Shown in pieces: positions 2,959 to 48,052 of a stretch of 61,798 nt of DNA (position 1 is its first letter; the number at the start of each line of letters is the position of its first letter). Under the pieces are notes generated by a model. The model was given only the letters and a program-made list of their open reading frames with translations. It did no database searches and was not told the DNA's origin. Both the position numbers and the translations under genes were made by a program. The stretch comes from Alphaproteobacteria bacterium (lineage in GTDB: Bacteria; Pseudomonadota; Alphaproteobacteria; JANQMY01): the NCBI GenBank assembly GCA_028279895.1, contig JANQMY010000071.1, positions 1-61,798 on the forward strand, given 5' to 3'.

Positions 2959-5900
2959 ATGCAATCATTTGTGGCATCTTTAGTGGATAAACAGGGGTTA
3001 TGTAACACGATGCTGGAAACGTTCCATACTGGGCGGTCGCGGGTCGTACTGTTCGTCCATGGGTTCAACAGCAATGTCGATACATTTGTCGGTGATGATC
3101 AGCGTCACCTGTTCCAGCACCTTCAAGACAACGCTTCAATTCTTGAGCACTTTGATCGAGCACAGTATTCGTACGGTACGAGCCTGTTTCGCAATTCGTT
3201 TGTGAATCATATGAAGCGAGCTATTCGTCCTGACGCCAAACCGTTAAAAACTGCAGCCTCATTGTCTCACACCGTCGAGAATCTCCAAGATGGCTTTCAG
3301 TCCCTGGCGGAAAAGTATGACGACTTCGTACTCGTTGGACACAGCATGGGCGGAATTGTAGTCAAATCGCTTCTGACGCGGCTTTCGGAATCGTCTCGCG
3401 TTAAAGTCTCACATTTCATTACATTAGGAACCCCACACCTGGGAATACCGTCTATTTCTTTCAATCAATTCGGCAAAATCTTAGGCAATCGGCAATTTGC
3501 AGATTTGTCATCACACAATCCGTTCCTTCAAGAACTCAATCATGCTTGGGATCAAATCCGACTGTCTGTCCCACATACGTTTTTTTATGGACTTCATGAT
3601 ACCATTGTTCCACGGAAGTACGGTGCTCCTCGTAACGATTTGGAGAACTGCCGGGCACTCGATGCGGATCATTTCTCTATTTGTCGGCCATCTGAAACCA
3701 ACCGTGAGTTAGTGGCATCGCTTGAAGCGATTATCCTCAATAGTCTGACTTCAGTTACTTGGGAACGGCTTTCATACGGTACGCTCAAAACGATCTGCTC
3801 TGATTATAAAGAACGAGAACAGCTGAATGACCGGACCTTGGTTTGTTTCTCGAACCGAATACCTGAACTGCAGTTACTGGAACCACATATCGAGAATGCT
3901 GCTTCAGCAGAGGTCGGCCTTTTGGTGGCAACAACTGCTGAGTTGAACGATAGAGATACTGCTGCACTTTCTGTGGCCGCCAAGAAATGGTCAGTGGCTC
4001 TCACTTTCTGGGATCGTCGCGACCTCTCAGCTTTATCAAAGAAGTACCCCCAAGTCGGAATACAGCACGGACTTATTGCAGTATCTCCGGTAAAGATTCC
4101 GCGATCGGCGCCCACCTTATCGATAAACTCTATTCCGGAGAGTCAAATCATAAATCGAACAAGAGAACGAGACTTCATTCGTAGGTTCGAAGAATCTTCG
4201 GCAAATGCCCTTTGGGTGTTTGGTATTGCTGGGGTTGGGAAATCGGTCTTGGTAGCCGCAGCAGTTCGTGAGTTCTTAAAACGATATTCAGCTACAGGTG
4301 TGCTGAGGGTCACACCCAAAACGGATACGACCGAGTTTGCAAAATTTTTGAATGACACATTCGCAAAAGCAGGGGTTCACTCGTTCAAGTCTATCTACGG
4401 CAACTCAAAGGTATCCGAAGAAGATAGGATTGCTACTGCAGTTTCTATTCTGCAACAGAACCGTCTATTGATTGTTATTGATAATTTTGAAGCCGCTCTT
4501 TCCGATCAAGGCGACTGCTTGATTTCTAATGTTCTTCCCATAATCAGGCAATTGGCGGAAGAAGGTGGGAAATCGAAAGTTATCATTACGTCACGCGCCC
4601 CTGTGCCAAAATTACTGAATGCACTGCTCAGAGTCGAAAGCCTCGATATTGAACCTCTAGTTCCTGAACAATGCGAGACCGAATACATCCCATCTTTGCC
4701 AAGGTTATCAATGGCAATTGATGAAAGTGAGGACTGGTCTATAGAACGTGTTCACGCCGTAACTGGCGGAATCCCGCTCGCACTAAACCTGCTCGATCGC
4801 TACCTATCTTTCCACACGCTCGATGAAGCTCATCGGAAGAGCTCCGAAAAGTTTCAAGCTTACCTGATTGAGACAATTGCAGGCAGTGAGACCACGAATG
4901 TTTTTGAAGCGTTACAACTGATAGCAGTTCTAGAAGGTGGCGTATCAGTGTCGCTATTTGAATACTTGGAACTCACGGACGTAGAGGTCAATCAAGTCGC
5001 GCATAGCCAGCTGTTGTCGTTCAATCAATTGGATAACGTATTCCACATGCATACCACGGTACGCGAGGCCATTCTCAAGACCATGGCGTTCGATAAGCTA
5101 CGCCAACTAAACCTGCTTGCCGCTCAGTACTTGGATTTTGAATATCGTGGACTGCACAAAGACAGTAAAGATAGGCACTTTGCAGAGCGAAAAAGACTTG
5201 CCTTCTTGATTAGCGCCTCCGACTACGAAGGCGCGGCACGATTGTTAGGACGTATTTGCACACGATACTTGTCGTTTAATAGTCATGATGAGTTGGACCA
5301 GATCATCGGTAGACTCCGGTCCCGACGCCTCAGCAAAAAAGCTCAAGCCTGGCTTCTAAACGTCGATGCCCATATGGGAGACTTCTTAAGAGCATTTGAT
5401 GAAACTAAGTCTCTGTATCAGAAAATGGTCGAGCTTTCAGTCGATAGTGATGATTACGAGTTAGCCTCGCTCTCGATCAGCAATTTTGCGACCACGAAGC
5501 GTCGGCGCGGTGATTTCAATGGAGCAATCAAAGACTATTGGAGAGCTTATCGGATAGCTCGGAGAGACAATTCCAGAAAGATGGTCGGGTCTTGTCTCAA
5601 CAATATCGCTCAGGCGTACGCTTACCTTTACCAGCATGAGGGTGGAGATGCTGATCGAGTGCAACGCATTTTCGAGAGAGCTATCCAGGTACGGACGATG
5701 GATGGAGACAAATTTCGCATCGCAGCAACTTATTTTCACTACGGGGCATTTTGTATTACTCGCCATCGCAACGAGTCCAACAATGCGAGTAATTGGTTAG
5801 AGCGCGGTCGCTCTCTGCTTCGCCGCAGTTTAGAACTTCAAGTAGATCAGGAGAATTTTTGGCTACTTGATCGAACATACGAACAGTTAGCATTGGCTGC

Positions 5901-6000
5901 AGACTTAATAGGTGATGAGATTAAGGCTGTTGAATTTCGCTCCTTTGCAGAGACGCAAAGGCTAGAACGTGATATTTATGTCAGTCCCCGGTTTCACTGA
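2959..6000 (+). CDS. alpha/beta-hydrolase (serine esterase/lipase-like) - NB-ARC STAND NTPase - TPR-like repeat protein
   Basis: Hydrolase triad candidates are VLVGHSMGG (nucleophile elbow), GLHDTIVP and DADHFS. NB-ARC motifs are Walker A GIAGVGKS, Walker B LLIVIDNFE, VIITSR and GGIPLAL. The C-terminal roughly 300 aa is helical and TPR-like (NIAQAYAYLYQHEG...). Confidence 0.8.
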   Translation: MQSFVASLVDKQGLCNTMLETFHTGRSRVVLFVHGFNSNVDTFVGDDQRHLFQHLQDNASILEHFDRAQYSYGTSLFRNSFVNHMKRAIRPDAKPLKTAASLSHTVENLQDGFQSLAEKYDDFVLVGHSMGGIVVKSLLTRLSESSRVKVSHFITLGTPHLGIPSISFNQFGKILGNRQFADLSSHNPFLQELNHAWDQIRLSVPHTFFYGLHDTIVPRKYGAPRNDLENCRALDADHFSICRPSETNRELVASLEAIILNSLTSVTWERLSYGTLKTICSDYKEREQLNDRTLVCFSNRIPELQLLEPHIENAASAEVGLLVATTAELNDRDTAALSVAAKKWSVALTFWDRRDLSALSKKYPQVGIQHGLIAVSPVKIPRSAPTLSINSIPESQIINRTRERDFIRRFEESSANALWVFGIAGVGKSVLVAAAVREFLKRYSATGVLRVTPKTDTTEFAKFLNDTFAKAGVHSFKSIYGNSKVSEEDRIATAVSILQQNRLLIVIDNFEAALSDQGDCLISNVLPIIRQLAEEGGKSKVIITSRAPVPKLLNALLRVESLDIEPLVPEQCETEYIPSLPRLSMAIDESEDWSIERVHAVTGGIPLALNLLDRYLSFHTLDEAHRKSSEKFQAYLIETIAGSETTNVFEALQLIAVLEGGVSVSLFEYLELTDVEVNQVAHSQLLSFNQLDNVFHMHTTVREAILKTMAFDKLRQLNLLAAQYLDFEYRGLHKDSKDRHFAERKRLAFLISASDYEGAARLLGRICTRYLSFNSHDELDQIIGRLRSRRLSKKAQAWLLNVDAHMGDFLRAFDETKSLYQKMVELSVDSDDYELASLSISNFATTKRRRGDFNGAIKDYWRAYRIARRDNSRKMVGSCLNNIAQAYAYLYQHEGGDADRVQRIFERAIQVRTMDGDKFRIAATYFHYGAFCITRHRNESNNASNWLERGRSLLRRSLELQVDQENFWLLDRTYEQLALAADLIGDEIKAVEFRSFAETQRLERDIYVSPRFH

Positions 6001-6014
6001 AGACACGCTCGATC

Positions 6015-7472
6015 TCAAAGTTTACGTGTGCCGGTTAAAATGAAAAAGTAGTCTTTTGTAAACTCGATCGACCAATCTGCAAGGTACTTGTCTGCCATCG
6101 TCTCCAGCTCGACGCGTGTGAAATAGTGTTTAACCACACGAAATGTTCGTCCGTCTTTCAACGTTCTTAGTTGAATGTCATTTGAATGCGACAGACAATT
6201 TAGCTCGGTTGGATTGTAGTAGGAGTCTAGGATAGTTACTTGTCCGCCCGGCGGGGACAAGGCTTGGTCAATACGTTCGAAAAGTGCCTCAATTTTCCCT
6301 CTCGGAACGTGGCTAATTAGGAACCCGAAAAAACAAGCCGTAAACTTGCCTAGCAAAGCGTCCGGCAGATCTTGATAAATATCGATGATTAGTCCCTTTA
6401 TGCCGGTATTCTTGAAATTCTCGTCGAGCATTTTGGAGGAAGCATCTGTTGGGAGTATTTGGTTTTTACGTGCAAGTAATTTCGTCCATTTCCCTGTTCC
6501 AGCTGCAAATTCAATGATGCTCTGACTCTCGATTTTTTGGAGAACGCTTGCCACATGATCTACGTCCTTGGACCAGCGTTCGTTGAGGGTTTCGCCTTTA
6601 TCGTAAATGCCCTCGCGATCGTACCAGTCTTCGTACTCGGGGGCTCTCTCATTATAATATTCGAGCATTTCATTCGAAATATCACTGAGTGTCGCTGTCC
6701 TACCTACCAGAGTGTCAATGAGGTGGCGAGCAGCACTACGATCAACCGGCGACGTACCTGTTTGAATAAGCTGTCTAGCTACATGACTCGTTTCTACGAT
6801 CGATGCGAACAGCAAGTCATGACCAAATATGAGATGATCTACGCGCAACTCTCGTGCAGCATTAGTCTTCTCTTCGTCCAGGAGTGTCATAATGATTGAG
6901 AAATTTAGGTTGGGGTATTTCTCTATGACGGTCAGCATTAGGTTAGGGTTGTCACCGTGCAAAGCAACATCCGAAACTTCCGGAACATTGTTTAGCAAAT
7001 GGTCAATTTTTTCGCAGACGTGAGTTGCCGGATAGCCTCTGACCAAGCCGTTCGTGCGGGCGATCACTTTTCCAGCGAACCTTTCATCTACAAATGCGAC
7101 GCGCTCAGAAAATTGTTCGGAGGTAAGTAGATCTTGGTCGGACTCGTATAGCGCCGAGACTTTTGGAGTCCGCTCGTCTTCTACGCATACGGCATACGCA
7201 CCCATCTCCGACAATGAAGACAGCAGGTGTGCAAATTCACCTACGTCATTGGAGCCACTATCTATGTCTACGATTGCCGGAATTTGGCTTGACTTCAAGA
7301 TCCGTTCGATGATGAGCAACTTGTCGTCGATCCTTGCAGCATCTTCATCGGGAAGCCCAAAACAAGCCGCGGAAATTGAAAAACCACTGACCCAAATGCC
7401 AGCTCCACCTAATTGTTCAACTAGACTTGCTTCAAGCGGTGAGTGGACGCCTAAAACTATACTACTGGACAT
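6015..7472 (-). CDS. fusion of a PEP-mutase/isocitrate-lyase-superfamily domain and a class I SAM-dependent methyltransferase
   Basis: The N-terminal half is co-linear with PEP mutase family motifs (GIWVSGFSISAA, IPAIVDIDSGSND, AVCVEDERTPKVSAL). The C-terminal half has methyltransferase motif I (IIEFAAGTGKWT) and downstream motifs (FFGFLISHVP). Confidence 0.7.
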   Translation of the reverse strand: MSSSIVLGVHSPLEASLVEQLGGAGIWVSGFSISAACFGLPDEDAARIDDKLLIIERILKSSQIPAIVDIDSGSNDVGEFAHLLSSLSEMGAYAVCVEDERTPKVSALYESDQDLLTSEQFSERVAFVDERFAGKVIARTNGLVRGYPATHVCEKIDHLLNNVPEVSDVALHGDNPNLMLTVIEKYPNLNFSIIMTLLDEEKTNAARELRVDHLIFGHDLLFASIVETSHVARQLIQTGTSPVDRSAARHLIDTLVGRTATLSDISNEMLEYYNERAPEYEDWYDREGIYDKGETLNERWSKDVDHVASVLQKIESQSIIEFAAGTGKWTKLLARKNQILPTDASSKMLDENFKNTGIKGLIIDIYQDLPDALLGKFTACFFGFLISHVPRGKIEALFERIDQALSPPGGQVTILDSYYNPTELNCLSHSNDIQLRTLKDGRTFRVVKHYFTRVELETMADKYLADWSIEFTKDYFFILTGTRKL

Positions 7473-7873
7473 GACCCATAACCCCTGTTTATAGGTACTG
7501 CGACGAAGGTCGAAGTGGGCAACTGCTTTAGGAGCTTCAAGGCCTCATCTGACCACAATCGGCGAAGTCATTTTCGTAGGAGCCCGACATCTAGAATTAG
7601 GCCCGGAAAAGAGATTGCGTGATCGCGGTCTAGACGTTTGCAGATGATGCCAGTTATCGTTGCGCCGGGGGAACCTATTAGGTGGTTGTTTCGTTTCATG
7701 TTGGGGTTCGTTGAACATTCGGTCTGAGTGCTCGTAGTTTGGCCTCACAGTTCAACAGACTCATTTTGTTGTTCATGTTCGGTGATACATAAAGAACAGT
7801 TGACCAAACTCACAAAACCGAACCGGGGCCTGTCTTATCAGAAGGGGCTTCATGGGAGTTTGCGCCCAAGGCG

Positions 7874-8317
7874 TTGGAACAGCTTTTACCTGGCCGACAT
7901 AGGAAGAGCCATAACCACCAGAATATTCCATTCTTAATGATAACTATGGGCTGGGATAGGGCGTTGTCTACGTTTTCACCAGAGCTGTTGGGTCATCGAG
8001 ACGCAAGATACAACGATTTCATAGTTGGCAATACGAATTCCGATCCGATAATTGAAATCCGGCCAGAGATGATTAGCCTCTTTAGCGACGTCGACAGGGA
8101 AACCAACGCCTGCAAGGCAGAACGCGGCTACTTCAATCTTTGCGGAGGCGGCGCCCCAGCTAACAAATACTTTGAGAACGGTGATTTTGATTCGACCAAG
8201 AATTTCTGTCGCTTTACTAAGATGGCTGTCGTTGACATGATCTTAGCGCACGCGGAACGTCGGAAACCAAACAAACACAACGGGAATCTTGAAACACAGA
8301 TTTACGGAAAAGTATGA
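7874..8317 (+). CDS. hypothetical protein (possible real start near 7937)
   Basis: Only an open frame in an otherwise ORF-poor stretch. No motif recognised. Confidence 0.25.
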   Translation: MEQLLPGRHRKSHNHQNIPFLMITMGWDRALSTFSPELLGHRDARYNDFIVGNTNSDPIIEIRPEMISLFSDVDRETNACKAERGYFNLCGGGAPANKYFENGDFDSTKNFCRFTKMAVVDMILAHAERRKPNKHNGNLETQIYGKV

Positions 8318-8584
8318 TGAGTCTTGGCGAGCGCTCACTCCGATTCGCCGTAACTCTTCACAGCTGCTTAAGAATGGGGAGTTGAGGCATTTAAGAATCA
8401 GAGCCTAACGCGAAAACGGAAGCGGCGGGCTTCAATCGCAAGTTAGCCTGACCCAACCAGATTCCGTGTAGGCCAGAGAAGGAACTTTCGGTACACAGAA
8501 AACTTTGGGTAACCCAAGTGTTCTTTCATCTGCTGTCTCAGGTGATGTGGGTCTGTCACTTGTCCCCGTATTTCGGTGAGTGTT

Positions 8585-9463
8585 TTAGGGCAACCCAACG
8601 AGATCATAGATCTCAGGACCTAAACCGACCAGCGTATGGCGAGCCAGTACGCGTCCATCGGAAGACAGTGTCCAAATTGTTGCGTCTGGCCGCCTATCAG
8701 TGAGCTGTTCCCGGCGAGGCCGTTGAGCGCTTTCGGCTACATGTAAAAGACCATCAGCTGCGACTACCAAACCTCGTAGATAGCCATTTAGTCGGGCAAG
8801 GGGCTCGTTGTTGCGCCAGACGACAGAACTTCGGGACTCACAGAAAAAAAATGAGCTGTTGTACGAATAGGGGCTGTGCGGCTGGTCAAGCCCCGTACGG
8901 ATTTGTTGAGAACGCTCTATATCAATCAAGTAGCCAGTCGACTTTACCTCGTGAGCTTGCTGTCCACTGACCCCAAGCGCGCTGAGAATCAACCCGCCAT
9001 CATGTCGGACGAGACCATTAAAATGCTGAGGTTCCACGTCGGTATGCTCGAATACAGTATCTGATACGAAAGCTCCCGACACCGACATTTTGTACCTGAT
9101 AACTTGGTTGGTCCTCGAGGATACCACCCACAAGTGTTGGCCTTCCACGACCAGACCATGAGGATCTGATGCGCCTGGTAGTTCGTACCACCCCGTCTGC
9201 TCGAGTCTATGGTTAAATATGGCCAAGAACGAAACGTCTAAAGATCCCGCAACAACAAATAGACCATTTGAAGACATCGCCAGCCCCATCATGCGTATTG
9301 CCCCATTTGGGCCATCCACCGGGATCGAAGAAACTTCCCAATCGACTCTGCTATCTGCACCGAACGGCCGTCTAGCTTGAAAGAGGCAAGGACAAAAGTT
9401 GCCTCTCCGCCCGGTGTGTGCAGACCCTACGAGCGTGACGGTACTACGTTGCTCACTATTCAT
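8585..9463 (-). CDS. DUF4915 / TIGR03032-like beta-propeller-type protein (start uncertain: 9529, 9463 or 9292)
   Basis: Blade-like repeats and strings resembling the family consensus as I remember it: HFNGLV..DGG, GLDQPHSPYSY and GYLRGLVVAADGLLHVAES. Confidence 0.5.
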   Translation of the reverse strand: MNSEQRSTVTLVGSAHTGRRGNFCPCLFQARRPFGADSRVDWEVSSIPVDGPNGAIRMMGLAMSSNGLFVVAGSLDVSFLAIFNHRLEQTGWYELPGASDPHGLVVEGQHLWVVSSRTNQVIRYKMSVSGAFVSDTVFEHTDVEPQHFNGLVRHDGGLILSALGVSGQQAHEVKSTGYLIDIERSQQIRTGLDQPHSPYSYNSSFFFCESRSSVVWRNNEPLARLNGYLRGLVVAADGLLHVAESAQRPRREQLTDRRPDATIWTLSSDGRVLARHTLVGLGPEIYDLVGLP

Positions 9464-10234
9464 ATGACAGACAATGTTACGTTGCGTATCACTAGCCGCA
9501 CAGATATTATTAAAGTGCTCTCCAAACAACTAGGCGTTAGCTTGTTTTTTTCATTGAGCGGAACCGGTGAATTGACGAGATGCAGCTGCACAATACTAAT
9601 TCTCGGGCACCTTCCTTCGGCCGACAATCTCAACCGCCTCCGGTCTCGAGATATCGACATAGAGCCCATTACTGCCCAGCGTTGGCGCAGTCGTATCGCG
9701 GCGGCGGTCCCGCTGCTGCGATGTTTTGCACGCCTCGTTAGTGTTACATATTGTCCTACGACAATTCGGCATGCGCGTAGTGCAATGTTGCTTACCGAGT
9801 TGCTTGGAATTGAAGGCCCTGTTGCTGATGCTCGTTTGAACAATATTGATTATGGTGTGCACAAAGGCCATCCACTTGAGCTTACTCCCTCAAGAGCCGC
9901 AACACCTTCCATTCCCTATGAAGGCGGTGAGGCGTGGAGCGACGTGGCCACTCGGTGGCGCCAATTTTGCGCTGAAACTCTGCCACGACATGAGGGTGAG
10001 CTAGTACTATTGGCGGGGCAGTCGGGTACAGCCGCTCGAATGCTTCGACATATATGCGAGGGCGTTCCACTCCAAGATGTTCTGAAATCTCAGATACCAA
10101 GTATACCCTTTTTCTCGTCACATTGGGATTTTCCGACCGACGGTCTCTTGTGGCAATACAGTTGGATCGCTGATTGTGAACAGGGTGCGGTACAAAACCA
10201 GAACGGCTCCGGCTCCTCTAATGTAGATGCATGA
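9464..10234 (+). CDS. degenerate histidine-phosphatase (phosphoglycerate-mutase-like) domain protein; start uncertain
   Basis: The C-terminal half follows the family layout (IDYGVHKG, YEGGEAWSDVATRW, ELVLLAGQSGTAARML). The RHG motif and the second catalytic His appear replaced (ILGHL; AGQSG). Confidence 0.3.
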   Translation: MTDNVTLRITSRTDIIKVLSKQLGVSLFFSLSGTGELTRCSCTILILGHLPSADNLNRLRSRDIDIEPITAQRWRSRIAAAVPLLRCFARLVSVTYCPTTIRHARSAMLLTELLGIEGPVADARLNNIDYGVHKGHPLELTPSRAATPSIPYEGGEAWSDVATRWRQFCAETLPRHEGELVLLAGQSGTAARMLRHICEGVPLQDVLKSQIPSIPFFSSHWDFPTDGLLWQYSWIADCEQGAVQNQNGSGSSNVDA

Positions 10235-10367
10235 GCAGACGGAGTGTTAAAGGACCGTTGTTCCTAAATAGATCCTATCTCGGCCCCTTGATTACATCAG
10301 TGCCTAGAAGTATCAATTAATTGTAATCACCACGTTTGCTCTTTTTAGGACACCTAGGGAGGGAAGC

Positions 10368-12188
10368 ATGTGGAAGTTTCCGCCGAGCCAGGTCGAGCTG
10401 AGTCTCGTCGACGCAGTAAGTAAGGGAGAAATATGGAGTCCTTCCCACTACAGGGAATGGATGATTTCACATCGGCTCATGCCAAAAGCATTTAGTAAAT
10501 CTGGTGGTCAAAACAAACGCCGCAGACTGCTTAAAGACGAAGAGCCCGACAATCATGAACACCCGGCTGAGGTAAGTAATGGCGGAGATGCGATTCGTGC
10601 GGAATTCATCCGTGAGCTGATCCTAGGTCGAGTCTCGGAAGAGGATTGTCCCACGTGGCATGATGAGAGTGGCATACGTATTGGTGACGCCGTAATTATT
10701 GGCACGTTCGACTTAACATCAATAGATTACGACAAACCTATTGAAATCATAAACAGCAGTTTTGAATCCATCATTTTCCTGCGCAACGCACGTCTACGGC
10801 AAGTCCGTCTTACTGGGTGCAAGGTACCCAGCATCGAGGCTGAAAATGTGCATATTGATGGTAACTTCGAACTGACGCTAGTTAGAACGGGTGCTATTTC
10901 ACTCCTTAATGCTAAGTTGAAGGGGACGCTTAATCTTAAAGGCGCCGTTCTCAAGCCAGAAAATGGCAATCACATCGGGCCGGTGCTTAACTGCGAAGGA
11001 GCTGAGTTTGGTGCATCGGCCTTGCTTCATCGAGGCTTCATTGCTGAAGGAGAAGTGAGCTTAGTCCTTGTGCAGATTAATGGCCATCTTTCCTGTTCGG
11101 GTGGCACGTTTCGGAATGCAGGTGGGAAGGCGCTCCATTGCAATTCGGCAAGGATAGGAGGTAGCGTTCTCCTCCGTGAGGGGTTTGAATCTGTGGGCGA
11201 GGTAAACTTTGTCCGAAGCAGAATTACGGGCAATTTGCATTGCCATGACGCCTCGTTTGAAGATGTCGAAGGTATCGCCGTTGAATTGCGGTCCTGCCAG
11301 ATCGAAGGGGTCTTTTACTTCTGCGAATTAAGAAAAATCAAAGGCATGTTGAACCTTCGGGATACCAAGACAAAGAGTTTTGCTGATGATGGAACGGGCT
11401 GGCCGGGAAAGAACAAGCTCGTCCTCGACGGCTTCGAGTATGAATCCTTCACAGAATCATATATTGATGGCGCCCAACGGACGGTAATAGACGCTAAGCG
11501 AAGACTCCACTGGATACTATGTCAGCCCAATAACGACTTGCAGGGGGATTTCAAACCTCAGCCGTGGACACATTTATCCAAGGTGTTGCGAGAAATGGGG
11601 CATAGTCAGAACGCTAGGTTCATACTGCGCAAGCGATCCTCATGGCGTTTTCATCATGGCCCGCGCAAATGGTGGAATTGGATCGAGTGGCCGTTCCGAC
11701 TCGTTTTCTGGGGCTGGCTCACTGGTTACGGCTATGCATTACGTCGGCCAATTGTAGTTATCGTTGCCATTTGGTCGATCGGTTGGGTCATGTTCTCTGT
11801 AGCCCAGGACACTGGACTAATGCGTCCGGCCCCTGCAATCGCCGTACTTGATAGTGAATATCTCGAGCGCGCAAGGGCTGCAAACTCAATGTATGAGAGC
11901 TTTGAGCCCTGGCTTTATTCATTGGACGTATTTCTCCCCTTTGCGACTCTTCACCAGGAAAGCAATTGGATTCCACACGACGCGGGTGACATATCCGTAG
12001 ATTTGCGCAAAACCTATCCCGGACTTGTCAAACTGCCCAATTCATTTCAACCTTGGGTGAGTTGGGCGGAACGTGAACTTGAAGCAGGTGCAATAAAGAA
12101 ATGGTTCTGGTTCCAGATAGTCGCGGGCTGGATTCTGATGTCCATCGTCATTGTGGGCTTCTCCGGCCTTCTCAGGCGGGAGGAGTAG
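10368..12188 (+). CDS. membrane protein with N-terminal repetitive (beta-helix-like) domain and C-terminal TM helices
   Basis: A GGGAGGG Shine-Dalgarno lies upstream of the ATG. There are tandem 49-aa repeats at residues 207-304. Hydrophobic helices are LVFWGWLTGYGY..VVIVAIWSIGWVMF and FWFQIVAGWILMSIVIVGFSGLL. Confidence 0.7.
   Translation: MWKFPPSQVELSLVDAVSKGEIWSPSHYREWMISHRLMPKAFSKSGGQNKRRRLLKDEEPDNHEHPAEVSNGGDAIRAEFIRELILGRVSEEDCPTWHDESGIRIGDAVIIGTFDLTSIDYDKPIEIINSSFESIIFLRNARLRQVRLTGCKVPSIEAENVHIDGNFELTLVRTGAISLLNAKLKGTLNLKGAVLKPENGNHIGPVLNCEGAEFGASALLHRGFIAEGEVSLVLVQINGHLSCSGGTFRNAGGKALHCNSARIGGSVLLREGFESVGEVNFVRSRITGNLHCHDASFEDVEGIAVELRSCQIEGVFYFCELRKIKGMLNLRDTKTKSFADDGTGWPGKNKLVLDGFEYESFTESYIDGAQRTVIDAKRRLHWILCQPNNDLQGDFKPQPWTHLSKVLREMGHSQNARFILRKRSSWRFHHGPRKWWNWIEWPFRLVFWGWLTGYGYALRRPIVVIVAIWSIGWVMFSVAQDTGLMRPAPAIAVLDSEYLERARAANSMYESFEPWLYSLDVFLPFATLHQESNWIPHDAGDISVDLRKTYPGLVKLPNSFQPWVSWAERELEAGAIKKWFWFQIVAGWILMSIVIVGFSGLLRREE
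10986..11279 (+). repeat. two tandem 49-codon repeats inside the 10368-12188 CDS
   Basis: LNCEGAEFGASALLHRGFIAEGEVSLVLVQINGHLSCSGGTFRNAGGKA aligns without gaps to LHCNSARIGGSVLLREGFESVGEVNFVRSRITGNLHCHDASFEDVEGIA. Weaker flanking copies are present. Confidence 0.6.
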
Positions 12189-12199
12189 CGCAACTGAAT

Positions 12200-12937
12200 A
12201 TGGAACGTGCCCTCCCGATGCGCCGCGTTACCCCATTCTCGGGGCCACTTGAGACACATTCGACAATATTCGATAGCCCCTTAGTTCTAAGAGCGATGAT
12301 CATGAACGCGGGCGTCGTCAAAGTTCGAGGGTGGTTCGGTACCGAAGAAGAGTTTGTTGAGCTTGGTTGCCGGCTCGGTGCACTAGAGCGAGCCTCGCCT
12401 AAAGATTCGCGTCATTTAGGAAGACTCTTCAGAGTGAAATCGCGTCCGGGCGATTCAGTTGGTGTCGGTCGGTACTGGCATGCTGACGGCTTCGCAGGTA
12501 CAAGCGCACCGGCGCTGATAACCATATATCATGTTGTTAAGGGAACATCTTCTGTAAGCAACACATCTTTTGTCGATGGGTATGCCGCATGGTCAAACCT
12601 TAATAACCCACTTCGTGCTCTTATTTGCGATCGTTGGTGGGCTCACGCGAGTGGCTCCAGGCATCGGTTTGTTGTTGATCATCATAAACATCAATGTCCA
12701 ACTATCTCTGTGAACTTGGGAAAGATCTCGTCGATTCAGGGAATGAATGGCGTCGCTGTCAAGCGAACGGTATCAAGGATAGCGACAGCTTTAGATCTAG
12801 AGCCAAGGTATGTACACAGATGGACTCCAGGTGATGTTCTCCTCGTTGATAATCGTCGCATGTTGCACCGTGGCCCGGACAAAGTTGACCGAGAGCGGAT
12901 TCTATGGCGAACCTCGGTGATCAAGTATTCAATTTAG
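12200..12937 (+). CDS. TauD/TfdA-family Fe(II)/2-oxoglutarate dioxygenase-like protein
   Basis: H-x-D in RYWHADGF about 94 residues after the chosen ATG. Distal motif WTPGDVLLVDNRRMLHRG. The ORF-track start at 12101 overlaps the upstream gene, so I rejected it. Confidence 0.7.
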   Translation: MERALPMRRVTPFSGPLETHSTIFDSPLVLRAMIMNAGVVKVRGWFGTEEEFVELGCRLGALERASPKDSRHLGRLFRVKSRPGDSVGVGRYWHADGFAGTSAPALITIYHVVKGTSSVSNTSFVDGYAAWSNLNNPLRALICDRWWAHASGSRHRFVVDHHKHQCPTISVNLGKISSIQGMNGVAVKRTVSRIATALDLEPRYVHRWTPGDVLLVDNRRMLHRGPDKVDRERILWRTSVIKYSI

Positions 12938-12944
12938 AGGATAA

Positions 12945-13925
12945 TTGACGGCAAATACGATGCTCACAACGTCATCAAATCCAACTCCCCTCCTTGCGCT
13001 GGGAAGAGTGGGGCGACACGCACAAGTTTTTCTTAAAGATGAGTCTGTCCATCCGACGGGCACTTTTAAAGATCGGCTTTCTTCCGCTGCAGTTGGACGG
13101 TCCGATGGTGATGTACTGTTCGGTTCCATCAGCTACGGTAACACCGCTATCAGTTTCGCCCGCGCATGCGCCAAGCTATCGTGGGCGAGGTTTGTGGGCT
13201 TTGTCCCTCCTGACTTTGCAGCTTGGACCTTTGGTCCCTCTAGCACTGGCAGTTTCGCCACAGGGCAAGACTTCATAGATCAAATACGCTCGTATGGTGG
13301 CGCAATCCTTGAGGTAGACCTTTCAGAAGCAATCCTGGCCGACGATGATCTAGCTACTCTGGCCTGTGATGCTGGTCTCTTAAACGATAGTTGCTTTGTG
13401 AACGTAACGGAGGGACTGGAGTATCCTGCATACGGTTCAATTGCTTTGGAAGCACTCGAGCAGCTGGATGCGCCTCCAAATATCTGCGTTGTGCAGTTTG
13501 GAGCGGGGATCCTTGCGAACGAGATTAGAGACGTTTTCGAGCGCTTATCAAGTCAAACAGTCGTTATACCGATTAGCACACCTGATCCTCGTTCTTTAGC
13601 GCGCATGTTGTATGGACCCATTTGGCTCGACGTATTGTCGCTAGAGGCTGCGGGTACTAGCATGAGTAGGCACGCGTCACCGGATCGGACTGGCGTTATT
13701 CGCGATCCTTACGCCGTGTACATGGTTTCTGAAGATCAGATACAACAAGGATTAAGCATCGCGCGTGATTTTGGTATATCTGCAGAACCGTCCGGCTCAG
13801 CTGGTCTAGGATTTCTGGATGCGATCGAAACGATAGTGCCTAACTACGACCCGGAGACCGATCGAGTTCTTGTAATAAATACCGGCAATGGCATTGATCG
13901 GCTTACTGAACTCGAAAAGTCATGA
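12945..13925 (+). CDS. fold-type II PLP-dependent enzyme (cysteine synthase / threonine synthase / Trp-synthase-beta-like)
   Basis: Schiff-base lysine motif HPTGTFKDR. Also SISYGNTAISFA and the glycine loop QFGAGILANE. Confidence 0.75.
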   Translation: MTANTMLTTSSNPTPLLALGRVGRHAQVFLKDESVHPTGTFKDRLSSAAVGRSDGDVLFGSISYGNTAISFARACAKLSWARFVGFVPPDFAAWTFGPSSTGSFATGQDFIDQIRSYGGAILEVDLSEAILADDDLATLACDAGLLNDSCFVNVTEGLEYPAYGSIALEALEQLDAPPNICVVQFGAGILANEIRDVFERLSSQTVVIPISTPDPRSLARMLYGPIWLDVLSLEAAGTSMSRHASPDRTGVIRDPYAVYMVSEDQIQQGLSIARDFGISAEPSGSAGLGFLDAIETIVPNYDPETDRVLVINTGNGIDRLTELEKS

Positions 13926-14995
13926 GATTGATACACATAGATCCAACCGAACACCGAAAGCCACTCCCTCTTGTTGAGCTTGCTAACCTCGAGGCTTTGA
14001 TTCAACCGACCTTAGAGCAAATCGAGCCCGAGAACGGATCGGTCGCAACTTTCAGTGCAAATATCAAAGTCAAATTGTACAGCGACAGCGCTCATCTCCG
14101 TCAATTTTTTGCCCACAACTGGGGGAAAACGCTGACATCCAATGAGACGTCCCTGGGCGACGTGTGTGTTGTCGCACTCCGGTCCGATTTGGTGGACGGA
14201 GCACCAGAAATTCTGCCCGGGCGTCGATATGTTGATCCGGAAAGAAGAATTATTGTCAGCGTTGGTAGTGAATACTACGGGAACGTCAAAGTTTCAGTCA
14301 GAGGGTTGTGTTCGTCATTAGTTCGCCGAAAGAATTGTGGTGGTTTTTTGCACGGTGCATCAATGAATGTTGACGGGGCTGGAATCGTCGTCTGTGGAAC
14401 GTCTGGAGCGGGAAAAACAACGGCAACTCGAGCACTGATGGACTTTTACCCTGATGGGATAAGAATCATTAATGACGACTGGGGATGGGCCGATCACGAG
14501 ACAGCGACAATAGCGTTCACCGGTGAGCCGCGAATTCACATGAAATATCGTAGTGTGCGAGCCATTGCTCCGCATTTGAGGCCGTCACCAGCTTGTTATC
14601 TTTCCGAGAATTTTGAAGGAAATGAGGAAGATCCTCACGCTAGATTGCTAATTCGCCGAGAAGAGGTATTCGAATCGGGTGTTTCCGATTCTTCTTCATT
14701 CGATGGGTTAATCGTGATTTTGCGCGATGAATCAAAGGCGTTCTTTACGCGCCCCATGGAAGTGAGCGATCTGGATCTACTCGAGATCGCGGAATACTCA
14801 GCTTTCTATGATCGGCATGAGCGTTTTATGGATGGATCACTGCTGCTAGTTGATCAGGCTGATCTTGATTCAGAACGGCATCGATTTCGGCTCCTTCTAG
14901 AGAACATTCCTGCTGTTCTCGTAAACAACGTGGCGTCACCAAGACGCATAGCGCAAGAACTGCAGCTTCAGCTTGATCGCCTGGGAGTCCTGTAG
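13922..14995 (+). CDS. HPr-kinase C-terminal-domain-like P-loop kinase
   Basis: LHGASMNVDGAGIVVCGTSGAGKTTATRAL matches the HprK_C pattern (hG..v.v.G.GvLi.G.SG.GKS). Its ATG overlaps the upstream stop as ATGA at 13922-13925. Confidence 0.7.
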   Translation: MRLIHIDPTEHRKPLPLVELANLEALIQPTLEQIEPENGSVATFSANIKVKLYSDSAHLRQFFAHNWGKTLTSNETSLGDVCVVALRSDLVDGAPEILPGRRYVDPERRIIVSVGSEYYGNVKVSVRGLCSSLVRRKNCGGFLHGASMNVDGAGIVVCGTSGAGKTTATRALMDFYPDGIRIINDDWGWADHETATIAFTGEPRIHMKYRSVRAIAPHLRPSPACYLSENFEGNEEDPHARLLIRREEVFESGVSDSSSFDGLIVILRDESKAFFTRPMEVSDLDLLEIAEYSAFYDRHERFMDGSLLLVDQADLDSERHRFRLLLENIPAVLVNNVASPRRIAQELQLQLDRLGVL

Positions 14996-17280
14996 TGAAA
15001 CAGGACGGGCGACGAGTCGCTTTGTTGAAGAGCCGTCGACTCGCCATTGAGCTTGATCAGGCGTACGATGGCGGGTCAGTGCACGTGGTCAAACAGATAA
15101 AGTCTCTTTGTGCGAACGGTTACGAGGTGGACGCGTTTGCGAGAAGTGAGACCGGAAGAAACCAGCCTCCAGTTGAAATATCATCCAAGTTAAGAGTTTG
15201 GCATGTCGCGTTCACGCCCTGCGATTCGAAAGACTTTTTCGTTCGCGACCTTATTGAAGGTCGTAGTTTTGTTCAAAACGTCCTTGCGTCTTCTGGTTTC
15301 GCGGCGGCGCATTTTGATGCGATCCAAATTCATCACTGGACTTCAGGCGTGAACATTCATGAAGCACTTCCTGAGACGATTCCGATAGCATTTACTCCCC
15401 ACCTGCTGCCAACTGAAAAGGCCCTTGCCAACGGCGTGCCTCTTCCGAGTAGCGTGGTGGATGTTGAGCGAGGTTTGTTAGCCCGCGCGGATATCACGGT
15501 TGCTGTGTCTCGGGCAGAAGAACAGTCCTGTCGTCGTTTAGGGGGGCATCGCGTAAAACGAATAGCCAATGGTGTTAGCGACGCATTCTTCCGACTCCCG
15601 GTCTCCAGAAAGCCCACCTCAGGCGAAGCAGTAAGGCTGGGTAGTATTGGCCGTATGTGCGCACAGAAAGGCACAGACGTTTTGCTCGATGCAATGGAAC
15701 TCCTAGTCGCTCGAGGAGTTAATGCTTACCTTGACATTGTCGGTCCGTCTTACGGCGAGGACGAATTCGAGTGCAACATCAGACAGCGTCTTCTCGATCC
15801 CATGCTTTCAGGACGAGTTCGCTTGCTTGGTGCAGTCAGCCACGAATTACTCCCATCAATCGTTGCAGAGTGGCATGTCTACCTTCAGCCTTCTCGCTAT
15901 GAAAGCCAGGGAACCGCATTACTAGAAGCTATGGCGGCCAGCCGCTGCGTTGTAGCTACCTCATTGTCGGCAATAACAGAGTTTTTGAATGATCGCATCG
16001 GATTTCTCGTTCCCGCTCCTCCAGACGGAGAAGCGGTTGCGGAGGCAGTTTTCGATGCTCTCCAATCTTCAACGTGGGAGACTCAGGTTCGAGGTGCGCG
16101 TAACGCTGCAATGCCGTTTCGTTGGAAGCGGTCAACCAGCGAATTGTCCGAATGTCTGTCCGCCTTGATTGAAAGAGCAGATTGGCGCGACCGAAACAAG
16201 ACGGCTAAACTCAGCCACGATTTCCAGGAGCAAGGCCGGAAGATCGCACTAAAGATTGCAAAAGGCGTTCCTATCGCGGGAATTTTCCTCTTAGGCAGCG
16301 CTGCCCGCGGTGAGGTGCGCCCAGGTAGCGACATAGATTTGTTGATGTTGCAGGACGGTGGGCAACGATCTGATCAGGATTGGCGGTTTACACAGTTTGC
16401 GCCAGTCGACATTCGATGGGAAACCACAGAGTATGTCCATCGCTTGTGTGCGATGTCCAATGATGAGCTAGCCGATGCGGTGGCACAGCGACCACTGGTT
16501 GATTATCTATGTGGCGCGCGCGAACTAACATGCATTGGACAAGACTTGGCAGATGTTATAGCGCTGCTGCGGCAGCGACGATCCAGTAGTGAAGTTAAGT
16601 TCCTAGTCGCAAATCGAATGCTGGCACAGGCGAGTACGATTTTCGACAAAGCCGTACAATTAACCCATCAGGGTCTAATTGCTGATGCGCAAATCAAAAT
16701 TAACGCCGGCGCTCAGCTAATTCTACAAGCCTCGTTAGTCCAAAATGGTTGGATGATACAAGGCGCAAAACGTCGCTTGGAAGCTGCTGCGTCGTACGCC
16801 CCATTTTCTGTGTCAGTGCGACACGCCGCTTCGTTCTTGACGGCAGCTGTCGGTATTGATGGCGTTACATACGAGCACGCAAGACGACTGATCACTGCAC
16901 GGACACAAATGCGCGTGGAGCATGTTAAGTGCTTGGAAAAGCTTGGAGTGGATTCAACGGAGATTGCCATTGCTCGCCGTCACGCTCAAGGCGTGACTGA
17001 CTATTACTCCCCAGCGATTTCTGATGGGTACCTGAAGGGTTGCATCAATCACATCAAATCACTCTCGGGAGTTCCTTTGATGACTGCACATTATACAAGG
17101 TTGCTGAATCTTGACCCCAATGCGCCCGCTCAGTCTTTCTTGTCTTGTGCTGATATCTCGACGGAAGTGCAGAACCTCTGGCTGACGGTCGTGGACCCCC
17201 ATGAATTGGAGGCATTGTCCGAATTTGCGGCAATCGGGAGTCGATTCGCTCGAGAGCTTATACCGAGTGTAACCAACTAA
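14995..17280 (+). CDS. GT4-family glycosyltransferase fused to a nucleotidyltransferase (MNT/pol-beta-type) domain and helical C-terminal region
   Basis: GT-B signature YLQPSRYESQGTALLEAMAASRCVVAT. NTase signature LLGSAARGEVRPGSDIDLLML. The GTG start overlaps the upstream TAG as TAGTG at 14993-14997. Confidence 0.8.
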   Translation: MKQDGRRVALLKSRRLAIELDQAYDGGSVHVVKQIKSLCANGYEVDAFARSETGRNQPPVEISSKLRVWHVAFTPCDSKDFFVRDLIEGRSFVQNVLASSGFAAAHFDAIQIHHWTSGVNIHEALPETIPIAFTPHLLPTEKALANGVPLPSSVVDVERGLLARADITVAVSRAEEQSCRRLGGHRVKRIANGVSDAFFRLPVSRKPTSGEAVRLGSIGRMCAQKGTDVLLDAMELLVARGVNAYLDIVGPSYGEDEFECNIRQRLLDPMLSGRVRLLGAVSHELLPSIVAEWHVYLQPSRYESQGTALLEAMAASRCVVATSLSAITEFLNDRIGFLVPAPPDGEAVAEAVFDALQSSTWETQVRGARNAAMPFRWKRSTSELSECLSALIERADWRDRNKTAKLSHDFQEQGRKIALKIAKGVPIAGIFLLGSAARGEVRPGSDIDLLMLQDGGQRSDQDWRFTQFAPVDIRWETTEYVHRLCAMSNDELADAVAQRPLVDYLCGARELTCIGQDLADVIALLRQRRSSSEVKFLVANRMLAQASTIFDKAVQLTHQGLIADAQIKINAGAQLILQASLVQNGWMIQGAKRRLEAAASYAPFSVSVRHAASFLTAAVGIDGVTYEHARRLITARTQMRVEHVKCLEKLGVDSTEIAIARRHAQGVTDYYSPAISDGYLKGCINHIKSLSGVPLMTAHYTRLLNLDPNAPAQSFLSCADISTEVQNLWLTVVDPHELEALSEFAAIGSRFARELIPSVTN

Positions 17281-17411
17281 ATTCGTCACCCCACGCAAGA
17301 CTATCCCTTTCACGAAGGATTTGTGGAATACTTGACAAATGAAGATGGCAACTATGAAACCATCGTAGCTACGTCTAAAAGTCTTCCCCATAGGCGACTG
17401 TAAGAATACTA

Positions 17412-18185
17412 ATGATTTATGATTGGGATGAGATCTCCATACGAATCCTTAAGTGCTGTAACAAAGAGAATAGCACTCAAATTTGGTTAGTTAGACATGG
17501 GCAAACCGATTTCAATGTTTGTCGTGTTTTCTCGGGACAGTCGGAGGCTATGCTAACGCAAAGGGGGCTAACAGAAGCAAATAAACTGAGGAAACAGCTT
17601 CCAGAGGCAATTGACCAAATTTGGTGTAGCCCTCTTCAGCGTGCCCTCGACACTATGACACTCGCTTTCAGTCATGTTCCCCTAGAAAAAGTAGCCACAT
17701 ATGATGACACGGTGAATTTGGCTTTCCAAAAGATGTCGTTAGAAACTCGAATTGGTCATTTGGGTTCTCTTGCCTGGGTTAATGGGTCAAGCTCGGATAG
17801 ATCTTTTGAGGCTGTTCTCTCGAGAGTCCATATTGATTCACGATTCATGGAAATCTCTCTTGGGGATCTTGAGGGCAAACCATTTAGCGTTGTTACGGCC
17901 GGTGGCAACCACAGTTTAGACTACCGTCCTTCTGGCGGGGAAAGTTACAGGGAGTTTGGGCGGCGAGTGATGTCCGCGTTTTGCGAAGTTCTAGAATCGG
18001 CTGACGGAGCTTCATCGCCACACATCGTAATTTTCACCCATGCCGGTGTGATCAGAGTGCTGCAGTCCTTAGCTGGCCTGTATAGAACTTCGCAAGATAT
18101 GCTGTACAGTTCACCGCAAAACGCCAAACCAGTTCGACTTAGTGTTGCAAGTCTATCTATTCCGAGCTACTGGCGAATTGCATAG
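17412..18185 (+). CDS. histidine phosphatase family protein (phosphoglycerate-mutase-like), apparently intact
   Basis: IWLVRHGQTDFN (RHG motif), SPLQRALDT, GGESYREF and IFTHAGVIRV (second His). Confidence 0.8.
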   Translation: MIYDWDEISIRILKCCNKENSTQIWLVRHGQTDFNVCRVFSGQSEAMLTQRGLTEANKLRKQLPEAIDQIWCSPLQRALDTMTLAFSHVPLEKVATYDDTVNLAFQKMSLETRIGHLGSLAWVNGSSSDRSFEAVLSRVHIDSRFMEISLGDLEGKPFSVVTAGGNHSLDYRPSGGESYREFGRRVMSAFCEVLESADGASSPHIVIFTHAGVIRVLQSLAGLYRTSQDMLYSSPQNAKPVRLSVASLSIPSYWRIA

Positions 18186-37934: not shown

Positions 37935-38355
37935 TTTTAATTCCTTCCTTAAGTGCGAGAAATTTTTCGTGGTCATCAAGGATCTTGAGCTCTTCTTCGG
38001 TGAGCGAAGCGGTTTCTTTCTCGAGCGCATCGGTCAGATATTCCTTGACGAGATCCAAGATGATAGAAGTGGCTTTGTCGTTTCCCTTTATGGCTCTCGC
38101 GCCGAGCTGTTTAACAATCGCCTCGAGTTTAGTAATTTCCGTAGACAGACCATTTTCCTTAACAACGATCTTGCCGTTGGCTTCTTCCTCAACGATCGTC
38201 TTCAGGGCTTTCGACCCTTTCTTCTTGCCCTTGCTGTTGCCGCTGGTTCCCTTCGGCCATTGGGTGTGCTCGGGCGGTTTGCTGTAGCCAACGTCGTAGG
38301 CGCCTCCCAAGTCGACCTTGTTTTTGGGCTTCGGATTGGGTTTCTTGCTGGGCAT
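37897..38355 (-). CDS. DUF5681-type protein (position and size fit a small-terminase-like gene)
   Basis: GYSKPPEHTQWPKGTSGNSKGKKKG resembles the DUF5681 signature (PP...f.kG.SGNP.G.pkG). Its ATG shares one nucleotide with the upstream TGA. Confidence 0.6.
   Translation of the reverse strand: MPSKKPNPKPKNKVDLGGAYDVGYSKPPEHTQWPKGTSGNSKGKKKGSKALKTIVEEEANGKIVVKENGLSTEITKLEAIVKQLGARAIKGNDKATSIILDLVKEYLTDALEKETASLTEEELKILDDHEKFLALKEGIKNDYNIEPEDNSE

Positions 38356-47962: not shown

Positions 47963-48052
<90 letters not shown>

Follow-up and report, generated by a model that had tools for sequence, protein, structure and literature searches.

A rare mobile enzyme cassette with a PEPCK-fold kinase, possibly directing small-molecule synthesis, in an alphaproteobacterial defense island

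We analyzed a 61,798-nucleotide stretch of DNA from an alphaproteobacterium (GenBank assembly GCA_028279895.1, contig JANQMY010000071.1), referred to here at its full length as the window. Nine adjacent genes lie between positions 6015 and 18185. Central among them is a compact cassette (5 to 8 kb) encoding a fold-type-II pyridoxal phosphate (PLP) enzyme, a kinase with the fold of phosphoenolpyruvate (PEP) carboxykinase (PEPCK), and a family 4 glycosyltransferase (GT4) fused to a nucleotidyltransferase (NTase). The nine open reading frames (ORFs) had been described in an original prediction made from the sequence alone. All of them were found where that prediction had put them, and Pfam and NCBIfam reproduced its domain calls almost exactly.

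Core enzymes and operon layout of the cassette

The genes of the span are as follows; GT4 and NTase are domains of one fusion protein.

6015-7472, minus strand: isocitrate lyase/PEP-mutase-superfamily barrel fused to a class-I S-adenosylmethionine (SAM) methyltransferase (PEP_mutase, 65.8 bits)
8585-9529, minus strand: DUF4915/TIGR03032-like protein, divergently oriented (DUF4915, 46 bits versus a cutoff of 35)
9377-10234, plus strand: degenerate histidine-phosphatase-fold protein (His_Phos_1, 28.7 bits)
10368-12188, plus strand: 606-amino-acid (aa) protein with a repeat head and C-terminal transmembrane segments, inserted in the operon
12200-12937, plus strand: TauD/TfdA-type Fe(II)/2-oxoglutarate dioxygenase (TauD, 68.4 bits versus a cutoff of 27)
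12945-13925, plus strand: core module 1, fold-type-II PLP enzyme, threonine-synthase-like (PALP, 92.6 bits)
13922-14995, plus strand: core module 2, miniature PEPCK-fold P-loop kinase, 357 aa (assigned by AlphaFold2 model, Foldseek, and motifs)
14995-16179, plus strand: core module 3, GT4 (GT-B) glycosyltransferase domain of the fusion (assigned by Pfam and structure)
16180-17280, plus strand: core module 4, Polβ/ANT-type NTase with a conserved helical C-terminal domain of ~270 aa
17412-18185, plus strand: intact histidine phosphatase, CobC/PGM-like (His_Phos_1, 107.8 bits; ribazole_cobC, E = 4e-26, under its cutoff)

The PLP and kinase genes were joined by an exact stop/start overlap (ATGA, 13922-13925), as were the kinase and GT4-NTase genes (TAGTG, 14993-14997), and the true start of the TauD gene was ATG 12200, 11 nucleotides past the preceding stop codon. 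This layout supported the proposed organization of the TauD, PLP, kinase, and GT4-NTase genes as one operon. Upstream, the divergent DUF4915 and degenerate phosphatase genes, taken as their longest ORFs, overlapped by 153 nucleotides (9377-9529), and this overlap consisted solely of unconserved N-terminal extensions. Because conserved sequence begins later in both proteins, translation of each probably starts internally, with a short common promoter region between the genes. Promoter and terminator scans of the DNA scored at or below shuffle expectation and were uninformative. A further small ORF, orf147 (7874-8317), belonged to no family and had no homolog in related loci.

The kinase had originally been described as HprK-like. 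Among the top 50 Foldseek matches of its AlphaFold2 model (predicted local distance difference test [pLDDT], 90.4), all were PEP carboxykinases (E values down to 5e-15; TMq, 0.66; ~360 to 420 aligned columns), and the match to the PEPCK fold spanned both domains. The invariant motifs YYGNVK, H144, GTSGAGKTT, and NDDWGW corresponded to YAGEIKK, the metal-binding His, GLSGTGKTT, and GDDEHGW of PEPCK. The His, the Asp-Asp pair, the P-loop, and a single Lys were retained, whereas Val or Ile replaced the second residue of the KK pair. At the sequence level the protein stayed below the Pfam cutoffs of both PEPCK_ATP (22.9 versus 26.5 bits) and Hpr_kinase_C (19.7 versus 33.3 bits), with weak matches to the HprK_rel_A and ScmC models. 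Since the fold search returned only PEPCKs in its top 50 and Hpr_kinase_C remained under its cutoff, the HprK identity was rejected. The PEPCK fold is otherwise known almost exclusively from central metabolism and from HPr or peptide kinases.

Threonine synthase was the closest relative of the PLP enzyme: its best PDB profile match was the Bacillus subtilis protein (6cgq; E = 1.3e-14), ranked above serine/threonine dehydratases. The motifs TFKDRL (with the PLP lysine), SYGNT, FGAGIL, E(P/A)SG, and C-terminal NTGNG(I/L) were invariant across 13 orthologs. Despite the PLP-lysine motif, the enzyme scored far under every thrC equivalog cutoff (e.g., 34 versus 421 bits).

The GT4 domain exceeded the cutoffs of Glycos_transf_1, Glyco_trans_1_4, and Glyco_transf_4 (47.6 to 83.1 bits versus 26 to 30), and the scores of its N- and C-terminal domains together with its fold placed it among the GT4 (GT-B) glycosyltransferases. 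Foldseek was run on the whole GT4-NTase model (pLDDT, 89.8); its GT4 half dominated the matches, the best of which were MshA, sucrose-phosphate synthase, and GlgM (TMt up to 0.78). PF20706 (GT4-conflict) was reached at 26.8 bits in the window protein (cutoff, 26) and at 31 to 59.6 bits in relatives. The matches covered only profile positions ~137 to 385, the donor-binding half, and were always outscored by generic GT4 models in the window protein and in its relatives. Membership in the GT4-conflict family appears doubtful, as the PF20706 matches were generic and limited to the C-terminal half.

The NTase carried a G-S-x9-D-x-D motif, LLGSAARGEVRPGSDIDL, that was invariant in 12 orthologs. It matched PF01909 (NTP_transf_2) at 29 to 29.9 bits in the window (cutoff, 21) and at E <= 0.01 in 12 of 12 orthologs, and was assigned to the Polβ superfamily (MNT/ANT type). 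Its PDB profile matches (HalB, ANT(4'), and MNT) were confined to the NTase motif region, and in PADLOC it gave only generic MNT-motif matches to PDC-S09 (E of ~1e-6), while the other eight proteins of the span drew no match at all. The helical C-terminal domain, which bears invariant GAKRRxE, DYY, and NH motifs, belonged to no known family by sequence profile and drew only spurious TPR matches. Judged by motif conservation among orthologs, active sites were intact in every core enzyme.

As had been anticipated, the window cluster contained no nonribosomal peptide synthetase (NRPS), polyketide synthase (PKS), terpene, or ribosomally synthesized and posttranslationally modified peptide (RiPP) core scaffold synthase detectable by Pfam or NCBIfam. 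None of the curated family and defense models covered the kinase, the NTase C-terminal domain, or the cassette, PADLOC found nothing specific, and in the literature searched neither DUF4915 nor this combination of enzymes was mentioned. The earlier statement that the genes match no known pathway was thus borne out, and they matched no known defense system either.

Recurrence of the cassette and its accessory genes

The kinase family was very rare. It comprised 34 proteins among 5.8 billion clusters; in a second set of 1.84 billion clusters, 54 representatives matched at E <= 1e-30, and their number rose to 115 when the threshold was relaxed to E <= 1e-10. Four loci were found in 185,579 species genomes (a gammaproteobacterial metagenome-assembled genome [MAG], Allosphingosinicella, an Acidobacteriota MAG, and an unclassified MAG) and 11 in JGI metagenome contigs. 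One weak partial match, on an archaeal plasmid, came from 72,556 plasmids, and none from 50,697 phage records. Every window protein was mapped onto 25 distinct loci (numbered with the prefix L) from Gammaproteobacteria, Alphaproteobacteria, Acidobacteriota, and metagenomes, and co-occurrence was counted over the 19 loci whose sequence continues for 2.5 kb or more downstream of the kinase gene.

GT4 and NTase accompanied the kinase in all 19 loci and the PLP enzyme did so in 17, one of the two exceptions (L028) being interrupted by an insertion sequence. Gene order fell into three groups. In group A (the window, L002, L003, L009, and L029), a divergent DUF4915 gene faced a run of degenerate phosphatase, TauD, PLP, kinase, and GT4-NTase genes. 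Group B (L005 and L007) had the order PLP, kinase, GT4-NTase, and TauD, followed by a protein of 515 to 533 aa with an N-terminal anchor; a divergent DUF4915 gene lay upstream in L005, with none found in L007. Group C (L010, L011, L017, L020, and L022) had the order kinase, GT4, NTase, and PLP. GT4 and NTase were fused in groups A and B, whereas group C and L013 encoded them separately. Because the modules have been rearranged, fused, and split at 30 to 70% identity across phyla, chance juxtaposition of the four is ruled out. The neighborhood check thereby also upheld the predicted co-occurrence of the operon genes outside this genome. The loci sat on integrative or conjugative elements, and a decayed remnant (L014:9100-11362 and L015) lay beside an integrase gene. 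In it, a truncated DUF4915 gene faced a 453-aa GT4 C-terminal fragment with NTase, and the dioxygenase, PLP enzyme, and kinase were deleted. The NTase half as sole query returned one homolog, from this remnant; the search seems to need near-full-length matches. These results showed that the PLP enzyme, kinase, GT4, and NTase are co-inherited as a rare, uncharacterized cassette on mobile elements of unrelated bacteria. Neither a characterized locus with the same gene set nor confinement to one genome, the two outcomes named beforehand as speaking against a genuine cluster, was encountered.

Several accessory genes recurred with the core. TauD was present in 8 of the 19 well-flanked loci, where it either preceded the PLP gene or followed the GT4-NTase gene. 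Its H94-x-D96 and H223 triad and the 2-oxoglutarate-binding R233/R237 were invariant, which is in keeping with its family assignment, and its nearest structures were PlaO1, TfdA, TauD, AtsK, and ScoE. The DUF4915-like protein, for which the earlier call held at the level of the family only, was present in 6 of 19 loci and, in addition, in the decayed remnant; its orthologs in L002, L003, L005, L009, L029, and the L014 remnant showed 44 to 60% identity, and it had no sequence relative in the PDB. Its start is uncertain, with conserved sequence from about residue 28; in the identical Logan contig (L001), an independently called gene (1123-1857) corresponded to window positions 8585-9319.

The two histidine phosphatases had been predicted to be degenerate and intact, respectively, and both assignments stood. 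The first (9377-10234) was present in all five group A loci. It reads GHL in place of RHG and Gln in place of the second catalytic His, as do all of the four orthologs that were aligned (50 to 65% identity), so that it lacks the marks of an active histidine phosphatase; its conserved part begins at about residue 62 (position ~9560). The second (17412-18185) carried VRHGQT and THAG, as expected of an active-type branch 1 enzyme, and had an ortholog at the same position in L009 only. Group C loci had a divergent HAD phosphatase and a small P-loop protein instead. These phosphatases of two unrelated folds, recruited independently in different groups, point to a phosphorylated intermediate that is later dephosphorylated. 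The anchored protein of groups A and B, with one N-terminal transmembrane helix, was encoded 3' of the cassette in L002 (13462-15030), L005 (14243-15811), and L007 (14234-15781) at 47 to 50% identity among the three, with no family and no PADLOC match.

Two genes of the span were specific to the window. The fusion at 6015-7472 was closest, within its superfamily, to PEP mutase and phosphonopyruvate hydrolase, and its presence had suggested a cluster rich in phosphono chemistry. Histidine-phosphatase and NTase folds are also used in phosphinothricin biosynthesis, which would fit a phosphonate (C-P) natural-product cluster seeded by this gene. Where PepM has EDKxxxxxNS, the protein reads EDERTPKVSA, with K, N, and S all replaced; it reached 73.8 bits against the TIGR02320 equivalog cutoff of 319.55, no phosphonopyruvate decarboxylase, other thiamine pyrophosphate enzyme, or equivalent driver was found among the nine proteins by Pfam and NCBIfam, and no related locus contained a homolog of the fusion. 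Judged by its sequence, it is not a PEP mutase, although it is possibly a tailoring enzyme. On motif, score, and non-conservation, we rejected the phosphonate pathway as highly improbable, and the "phosphono" part of the earlier label was dropped.

The other window-specific gene (10368-12188) encodes the 606-aa protein. It showed two transmembrane regions and a ~49-aa periodicity far above that of shuffled controls; it had no Pfam, NCBIfam, PADLOC, or PDB match and no homolog in any related locus, and kinship with the 515- to 533-aa anchored protein was rejected by comparison. The span of nine genes consequently does not hold as a unit. The association of 12200-17280 with 8585-10234 and 17412-18185 is more than chance, as these genes recur together elsewhere, and that of 6015-7472 and 10368-12188, without homologs in related loci, is not.

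The membrane protein bears on the second of two roles that had been proposed for the genes, modification of a surface phospho-glycan that changes phage adsorption. In a scheme like that of LicABCD or teichoic acids, a phospho-X would be converted to NDP-X and transferred to a glycan. Phosphocholine and ribitol-phosphate decoration uses such kinase, NTase, and transferase logic, which the kinase, NTase, transferase, and phosphatase of the window resemble. The 25 loci contained no flippase, polymerase, lipid-carrier transferase, or polysaccharide export genes, however, and no transmembrane segment was predicted in the kinase, TauD, and DUF4915 proteins, the three that were scanned; the membrane protein is found in the window only, and the NTase is of the Polβ/ANT type rather than a sugar-phosphate nucleotidylyltransferase. 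We consider surface decoration quite improbable. The other proposed role, synthesis of a small molecule, fitted the data best and is developed below.

Neighboring genes and the defense island

Around the core, the gene content of the loci varied. Non-orthologous SAM methyltransferases occurred in six loci (including L003, L011, L027, L028, and L030), RimK-type ATP-grasp ligases in L003 and L021, GT2 and GT8 glycosyltransferases in L021, and major facilitator superfamily (MFS) transporters in L003, L011, and L017. Kinase-family members were also found in fusions. The C-terminal domain of the metagenomic protein P0077 (2081 aa), which follows MaoC, ketoreductase, acyl carrier protein, and ketosynthase domains and a trans-acyltransferase-type linker, is a member of the family (33% identity over 273 aa). 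Another member was fused to a GT4 N-terminal domain, and distant relatives were fused to class-I/II aminotransferases in P0116 and P0156.

The weak matches of the kinase to HprK_rel_A and ScmC recall peptide tailoring. In pseudomycoidin, an HprK-type kinase and an "NTP transferase" together give a hexose-bearing phosphate (PMC6993621), and the same pair recurs in LPP RiPP clusters (PMC13381572); pairs of this type phosphorylate lasso and LPP peptides and can then hexosylate them. By analogy with paeninodin- and pseudomycoidin-type lasso peptides, the kinase of the cassette would phosphorylate a peptide Ser and the NTase or GT4 would add a hexose to the phosphate. In L002, L003, L006, L007, and L009, the small ORFs close to the cassette were mutually unrelated, without a conserved precursor peptide, and neither the window nor the annotations of 14 related loci contained an RiPP recognition element (RRE)/PqqD, lasso cyclase, macrolactam synthetase, or leader- or signal-peptidase-like protease. 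With a kinase that matches PEPCK over both domains, not HprK, and an obligatory ThrC-like PLP enzyme that has no known role in such pathways, RiPP-like tailoring is improbable.

Genes for RNase J-like metallo-beta-lactamase/beta-CASP proteins lay beside the cassette in L008 (6819-8510), L013 (12105-13727, placed between the NTase and GT4 genes), and L028 (7321-9000); such a protein may serve as a phosphodiesterase for a nucleotidylated product. Other nucleotide-handling neighbors were a MazG-like protein in L013 and SurE with a nucleoside deoxyribosyltransferase in L027, and the substrate or product of the cassette may be a nucleoside or nucleotide.

About half of the well-flanked loci adjoined defense genes, which differed each time. 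In L005 (16420-21044; also in L006 and L012; Allosphingosinicella MAG), an RdrA-like ATPase (PADLOC RdrA, E = 2.5e-20) was encoded directly 3' of the cassette, accompanied by a protein with a faint adenosine-deaminase match; this neighbor is probably a RADAR system. A Ppl-like protein (L007), an Eco57I-type restriction-modification system (L029), and nSTAND5 (L002) were found elsewhere.

In the window, the left 48 kb (1-48052) resembled an integrated island ending at a tRNA-Ser gene, with a GC content of ~0.47 to 0.54 compared to 0.57 to 0.60 in the core genes past 49 kb (lepA, pheT, and thrS). No att repeats were detected in a search within the window, and the left end of the island therefore probably lies off the contig. 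Outside the nine-gene span, the following features were assigned.

1948-2865: tyrosine integrase, an island recombinase
2959-6000, plus strand: alpha/beta-hydrolase fused to nSTAND1/NB-ARC and TPR
18305-22927, minus strand: 1540-aa protein with a weak NACHT match only (E = 9e-4)
23788-28788, plus strand: 1666-aa DUF4011/SF1 helicase/MTES_1575 restriction-endonuclease-like protein
29429-30424: DUF4268 protein, within the island
31307-32278: protein with a type VI secretion system VasI-like C-terminal domain, within the island
34806-36491: serine recombinase, an island recombinase
38355-40037: N6/N4 DNA methylase, within the island
40199-41068: RNase_T-like exonuclease, a defense-type gene
41211-42335: Metallophos protein, a defense-type gene
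42345-44933: AAA_27/LmuB-like ATPase, adjoining the Metallophos gene
45683-46909: DUF3644 protein, PADLOC candidate PDC-S19 (E = 2e-93)
47963-48052: tRNA-Ser(GGA), right end of the island

The remaining ORFs of 29429-33243 belonged to no family. The protein at 23788-28788 matched PADLOC PDC-S37 (E = 0) and Hhe (E = 5e-227) and is a known single-gene defense system directly past the second of two signal transduction ATPases with numerous domains (STANDs) between which the cassette had been said to lie. For the first of these (2959-6000) the assignment held; its N-terminal alpha/beta-hydrolase matched the Lamassu LmuA model (E = 3e-14) and is a possible lipase or esterase effector candidate. For the second (18305-22927), described as a nuclease STAND, neither a nuclease nor another recognizable effector domain was found, nor any PADLOC match. 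Neither STAND had a homolog at any other cassette locus. A functional link between them and the cassette, which the original prediction had raised, was rejected for this reason, and their association with it is not more than chance. The window up to the tRNA gene is nonetheless a defense island (Hhe/PDC-S37, PDC-S19, LmuB-like ATPase, DNA methylase, STANDs, and two recombinases). The placement of the cassette in such an island is real and recurs with different defense genes elsewhere, as an association only.

From this setting an alternative arises in which the cassette acts inside the cell in defense or conflict, through an antiviral antimetabolite or by direct phosphorylation, glycosylation, or nucleotidylation of an invader protein or nucleic acid, with GT4 and NTase as effectors. 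It is consistent with the defense genes of the window island, with those adjoining the cassette in L002, L005, L007, and L029, and with the integrative or conjugative elements that carry the loci. GT4 domains have been predicted as conflict-system effectors (PF20706; Kaur, Burroughs, and Aravind; PMC8195603), and PF20706 was matched at or above its cutoff; the relatives of the NTase include HalB and MNT, and RNase J-like and nucleotide-handling genes are among the neighbors. However, PF20706 scored below generic GT4 models and covered the donor-binding half only, no system model of PADLOC-DB v2 matched any cassette protein, and the cassette contains no sensor or switch component. The neighbors differ in every locus, hence none is a partner, and cargo regions of mobile genetic elements are rich in defense genes regardless. 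The core enzymes are of small-molecule types, and the MFS exporters and the PKS fusion suit a metabolite better. We regard this alternative as possible, if unlikely; should the cassette make an antiviral metabolite, it merges with the small-molecule model.

A putative pathway and its known counterparts

The reading that we favor, with belief and doubt about equally balanced, is that the window carries a rare, horizontally mobile cassette that makes a small molecule via a phosphorylated intermediate. It draws on the co-inheritance of the core modules, on their intact active sites, and on the absence of matches to known defense systems; on the core enzymes, whose PEPCK fold, ThrC-like PLP enzyme, and MshA-, sucrose-phosphate synthase-, and GlgM-like glycosyltransferase are of small-molecule type; on methyltransferases, ATP-grasp ligases, additional glycosyltransferases, and MFS transporters that vary like the periphery of a biosynthetic gene cluster; and on the fusions of kinase-family members to a PKS module, a GT4 N-terminal domain, and aminotransferases. 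In such a pathway, TauD, where present, would hydroxylate an amino-acid or hydroxy/keto-acid precursor, which the PEPCK-fold kinase would then phosphorylate. The ThrC-like enzyme might take the phosphate as a leaving group or, alternatively, supply the amino-acid precursor. The GT4 domain would glycosylate a small phosphorylated acceptor, the fused NTase would nucleotidylate, and so activate or cap, a phosphate or hydroxyl, and a phosphatase would strip the phosphate. We infer the substrate and the product of this scheme, and the order of its steps purely so.

Several observations weigh against a small-molecule pathway. The cassette has no known scaffold-forming enzyme, exporters occur in three loci only, and the PKS fusion is a single metagenomic gene call. 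The position of about half of the well-flanked loci beside defense genes also fits intracellular defense, and pairs of HprK-family kinases and NTases are known as peptide modifiers (PMC6993621, PMC13381572). The RNase J-like and nucleotide enzymes hint at a nucleic-acid or nucleotide substrate outside the model, and DUF4915, the degenerate phosphatase, and the 515- to 533-aa anchored protein have no role in it.

The product probably serves in conflict, whether as an antimicrobial or as an antiviral metabolite. The cassette has spread across phyla on mobile elements, often beside Hhe, RADAR, Ppl, restriction-modification, or STAND genes, and is on this account a candidate for conflict or anti-phage activity exerted through a metabolite. 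A more specific version, in which the cassette is a "chemical immunity" cargo of defense islands whose product, a phospho-glyco-nucleotidyl amino-acid (or nucleoside) antimetabolite, blocks phage or kills competitors, is rather unlikely; if true, both the natural-product scaffold and this use of the PEPCK fold would be new. The broader small-molecule reading, if true, would reveal an undescribed, very rare natural-product pathway that genome mining based on core enzymes would miss for want of an NRPS, PKS, terpene, or RiPP core, and that contains two unusual parts: a PEPCK-fold kinase of 357 aa and a GT4 joined to a Polβ nucleotidyltransferase whose helical domain is novel.

Among known systems, paeninodin, pseudomycoidin, and the LPP clusters share with the cassette a P-loop kinase of the PEPCK/HprK class paired with an aminoglycoside-NTase-like enzyme. 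The cassette differs in having no precursor, RRE, cyclase, or protease, in its PEPCK-like kinase, and in the addition of an obligatory PLP enzyme and a canonical GT4. Like the predicted GT4 conflict effectors, its GT4 domain (PF20706, 26.8 to 59.6 bits) is found in mobile, defense-rich neighborhoods; it is not fused to STAND, TRADD-N, or other sensors, however, and is embedded in a metabolic operon. With ATP-dependent PEPCK the kinase has in common the two-domain fold, the P-loop, and the Tyr, Lys, His, and Asp-Asp motifs, but it measures 357 aa rather than ~530, shows 14 to 16% identity, and remains below the Pfam threshold. Its fold does not imply the carboxykinase reaction.

The aminoribosyl branch of caprazamycin and liposidomycin biosynthesis employs the TauD-like LipL, a PLP enzyme, the nucleotidyltransferase LipM, and the glycosyltransferase LipN. 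The cassette has the same list of enzyme classes, a likeness that implies no sequence relationship, and nucleotide-handling genes neighbor it in some loci; the folds presumably differ, with PLP type I versus type II, a sugar-phosphate NTase versus Polβ, and a different glycosyltransferase.

MshA, sucrose-phosphate synthase, and GlgM act on inositol 1-phosphate, fructose 6-phosphate, and glucose 1-phosphate, respectively, and in the pairs MshA/MshA2 and sucrose-phosphate synthase/phosphatase, glycosylation of the phosphorylated acceptor is followed by dephosphorylation. The cassette GT4, besides its structural matches, aligned over its full length with the MshA NCBIfam model, and many cassettes contain or adjoin a phosphatase gene. 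In contrast to these enzymes, it scored 65 bits versus an equivalog cutoff of 462, is fused to an NTase, and has no mycothiol or bacillithiol genes downstream.

Finally, in the ThrB-ThrC pair, homoserine kinase installs a phosphate that then serves the PLP enzyme as leaving group. The cassette couples its kinase by overlapping stop and start codons to a ThrC-like fold-type-II PLP enzyme, and SxGNT and TGNG(L/I) motifs are common to both systems. It departs from ThrB-ThrC in a kinase of the PEPCK rather than the GHMP fold, in a PLP enzyme that scores below the ThrC equivalogs, and in belonging to accessory, mobile DNA rather than to core metabolism.

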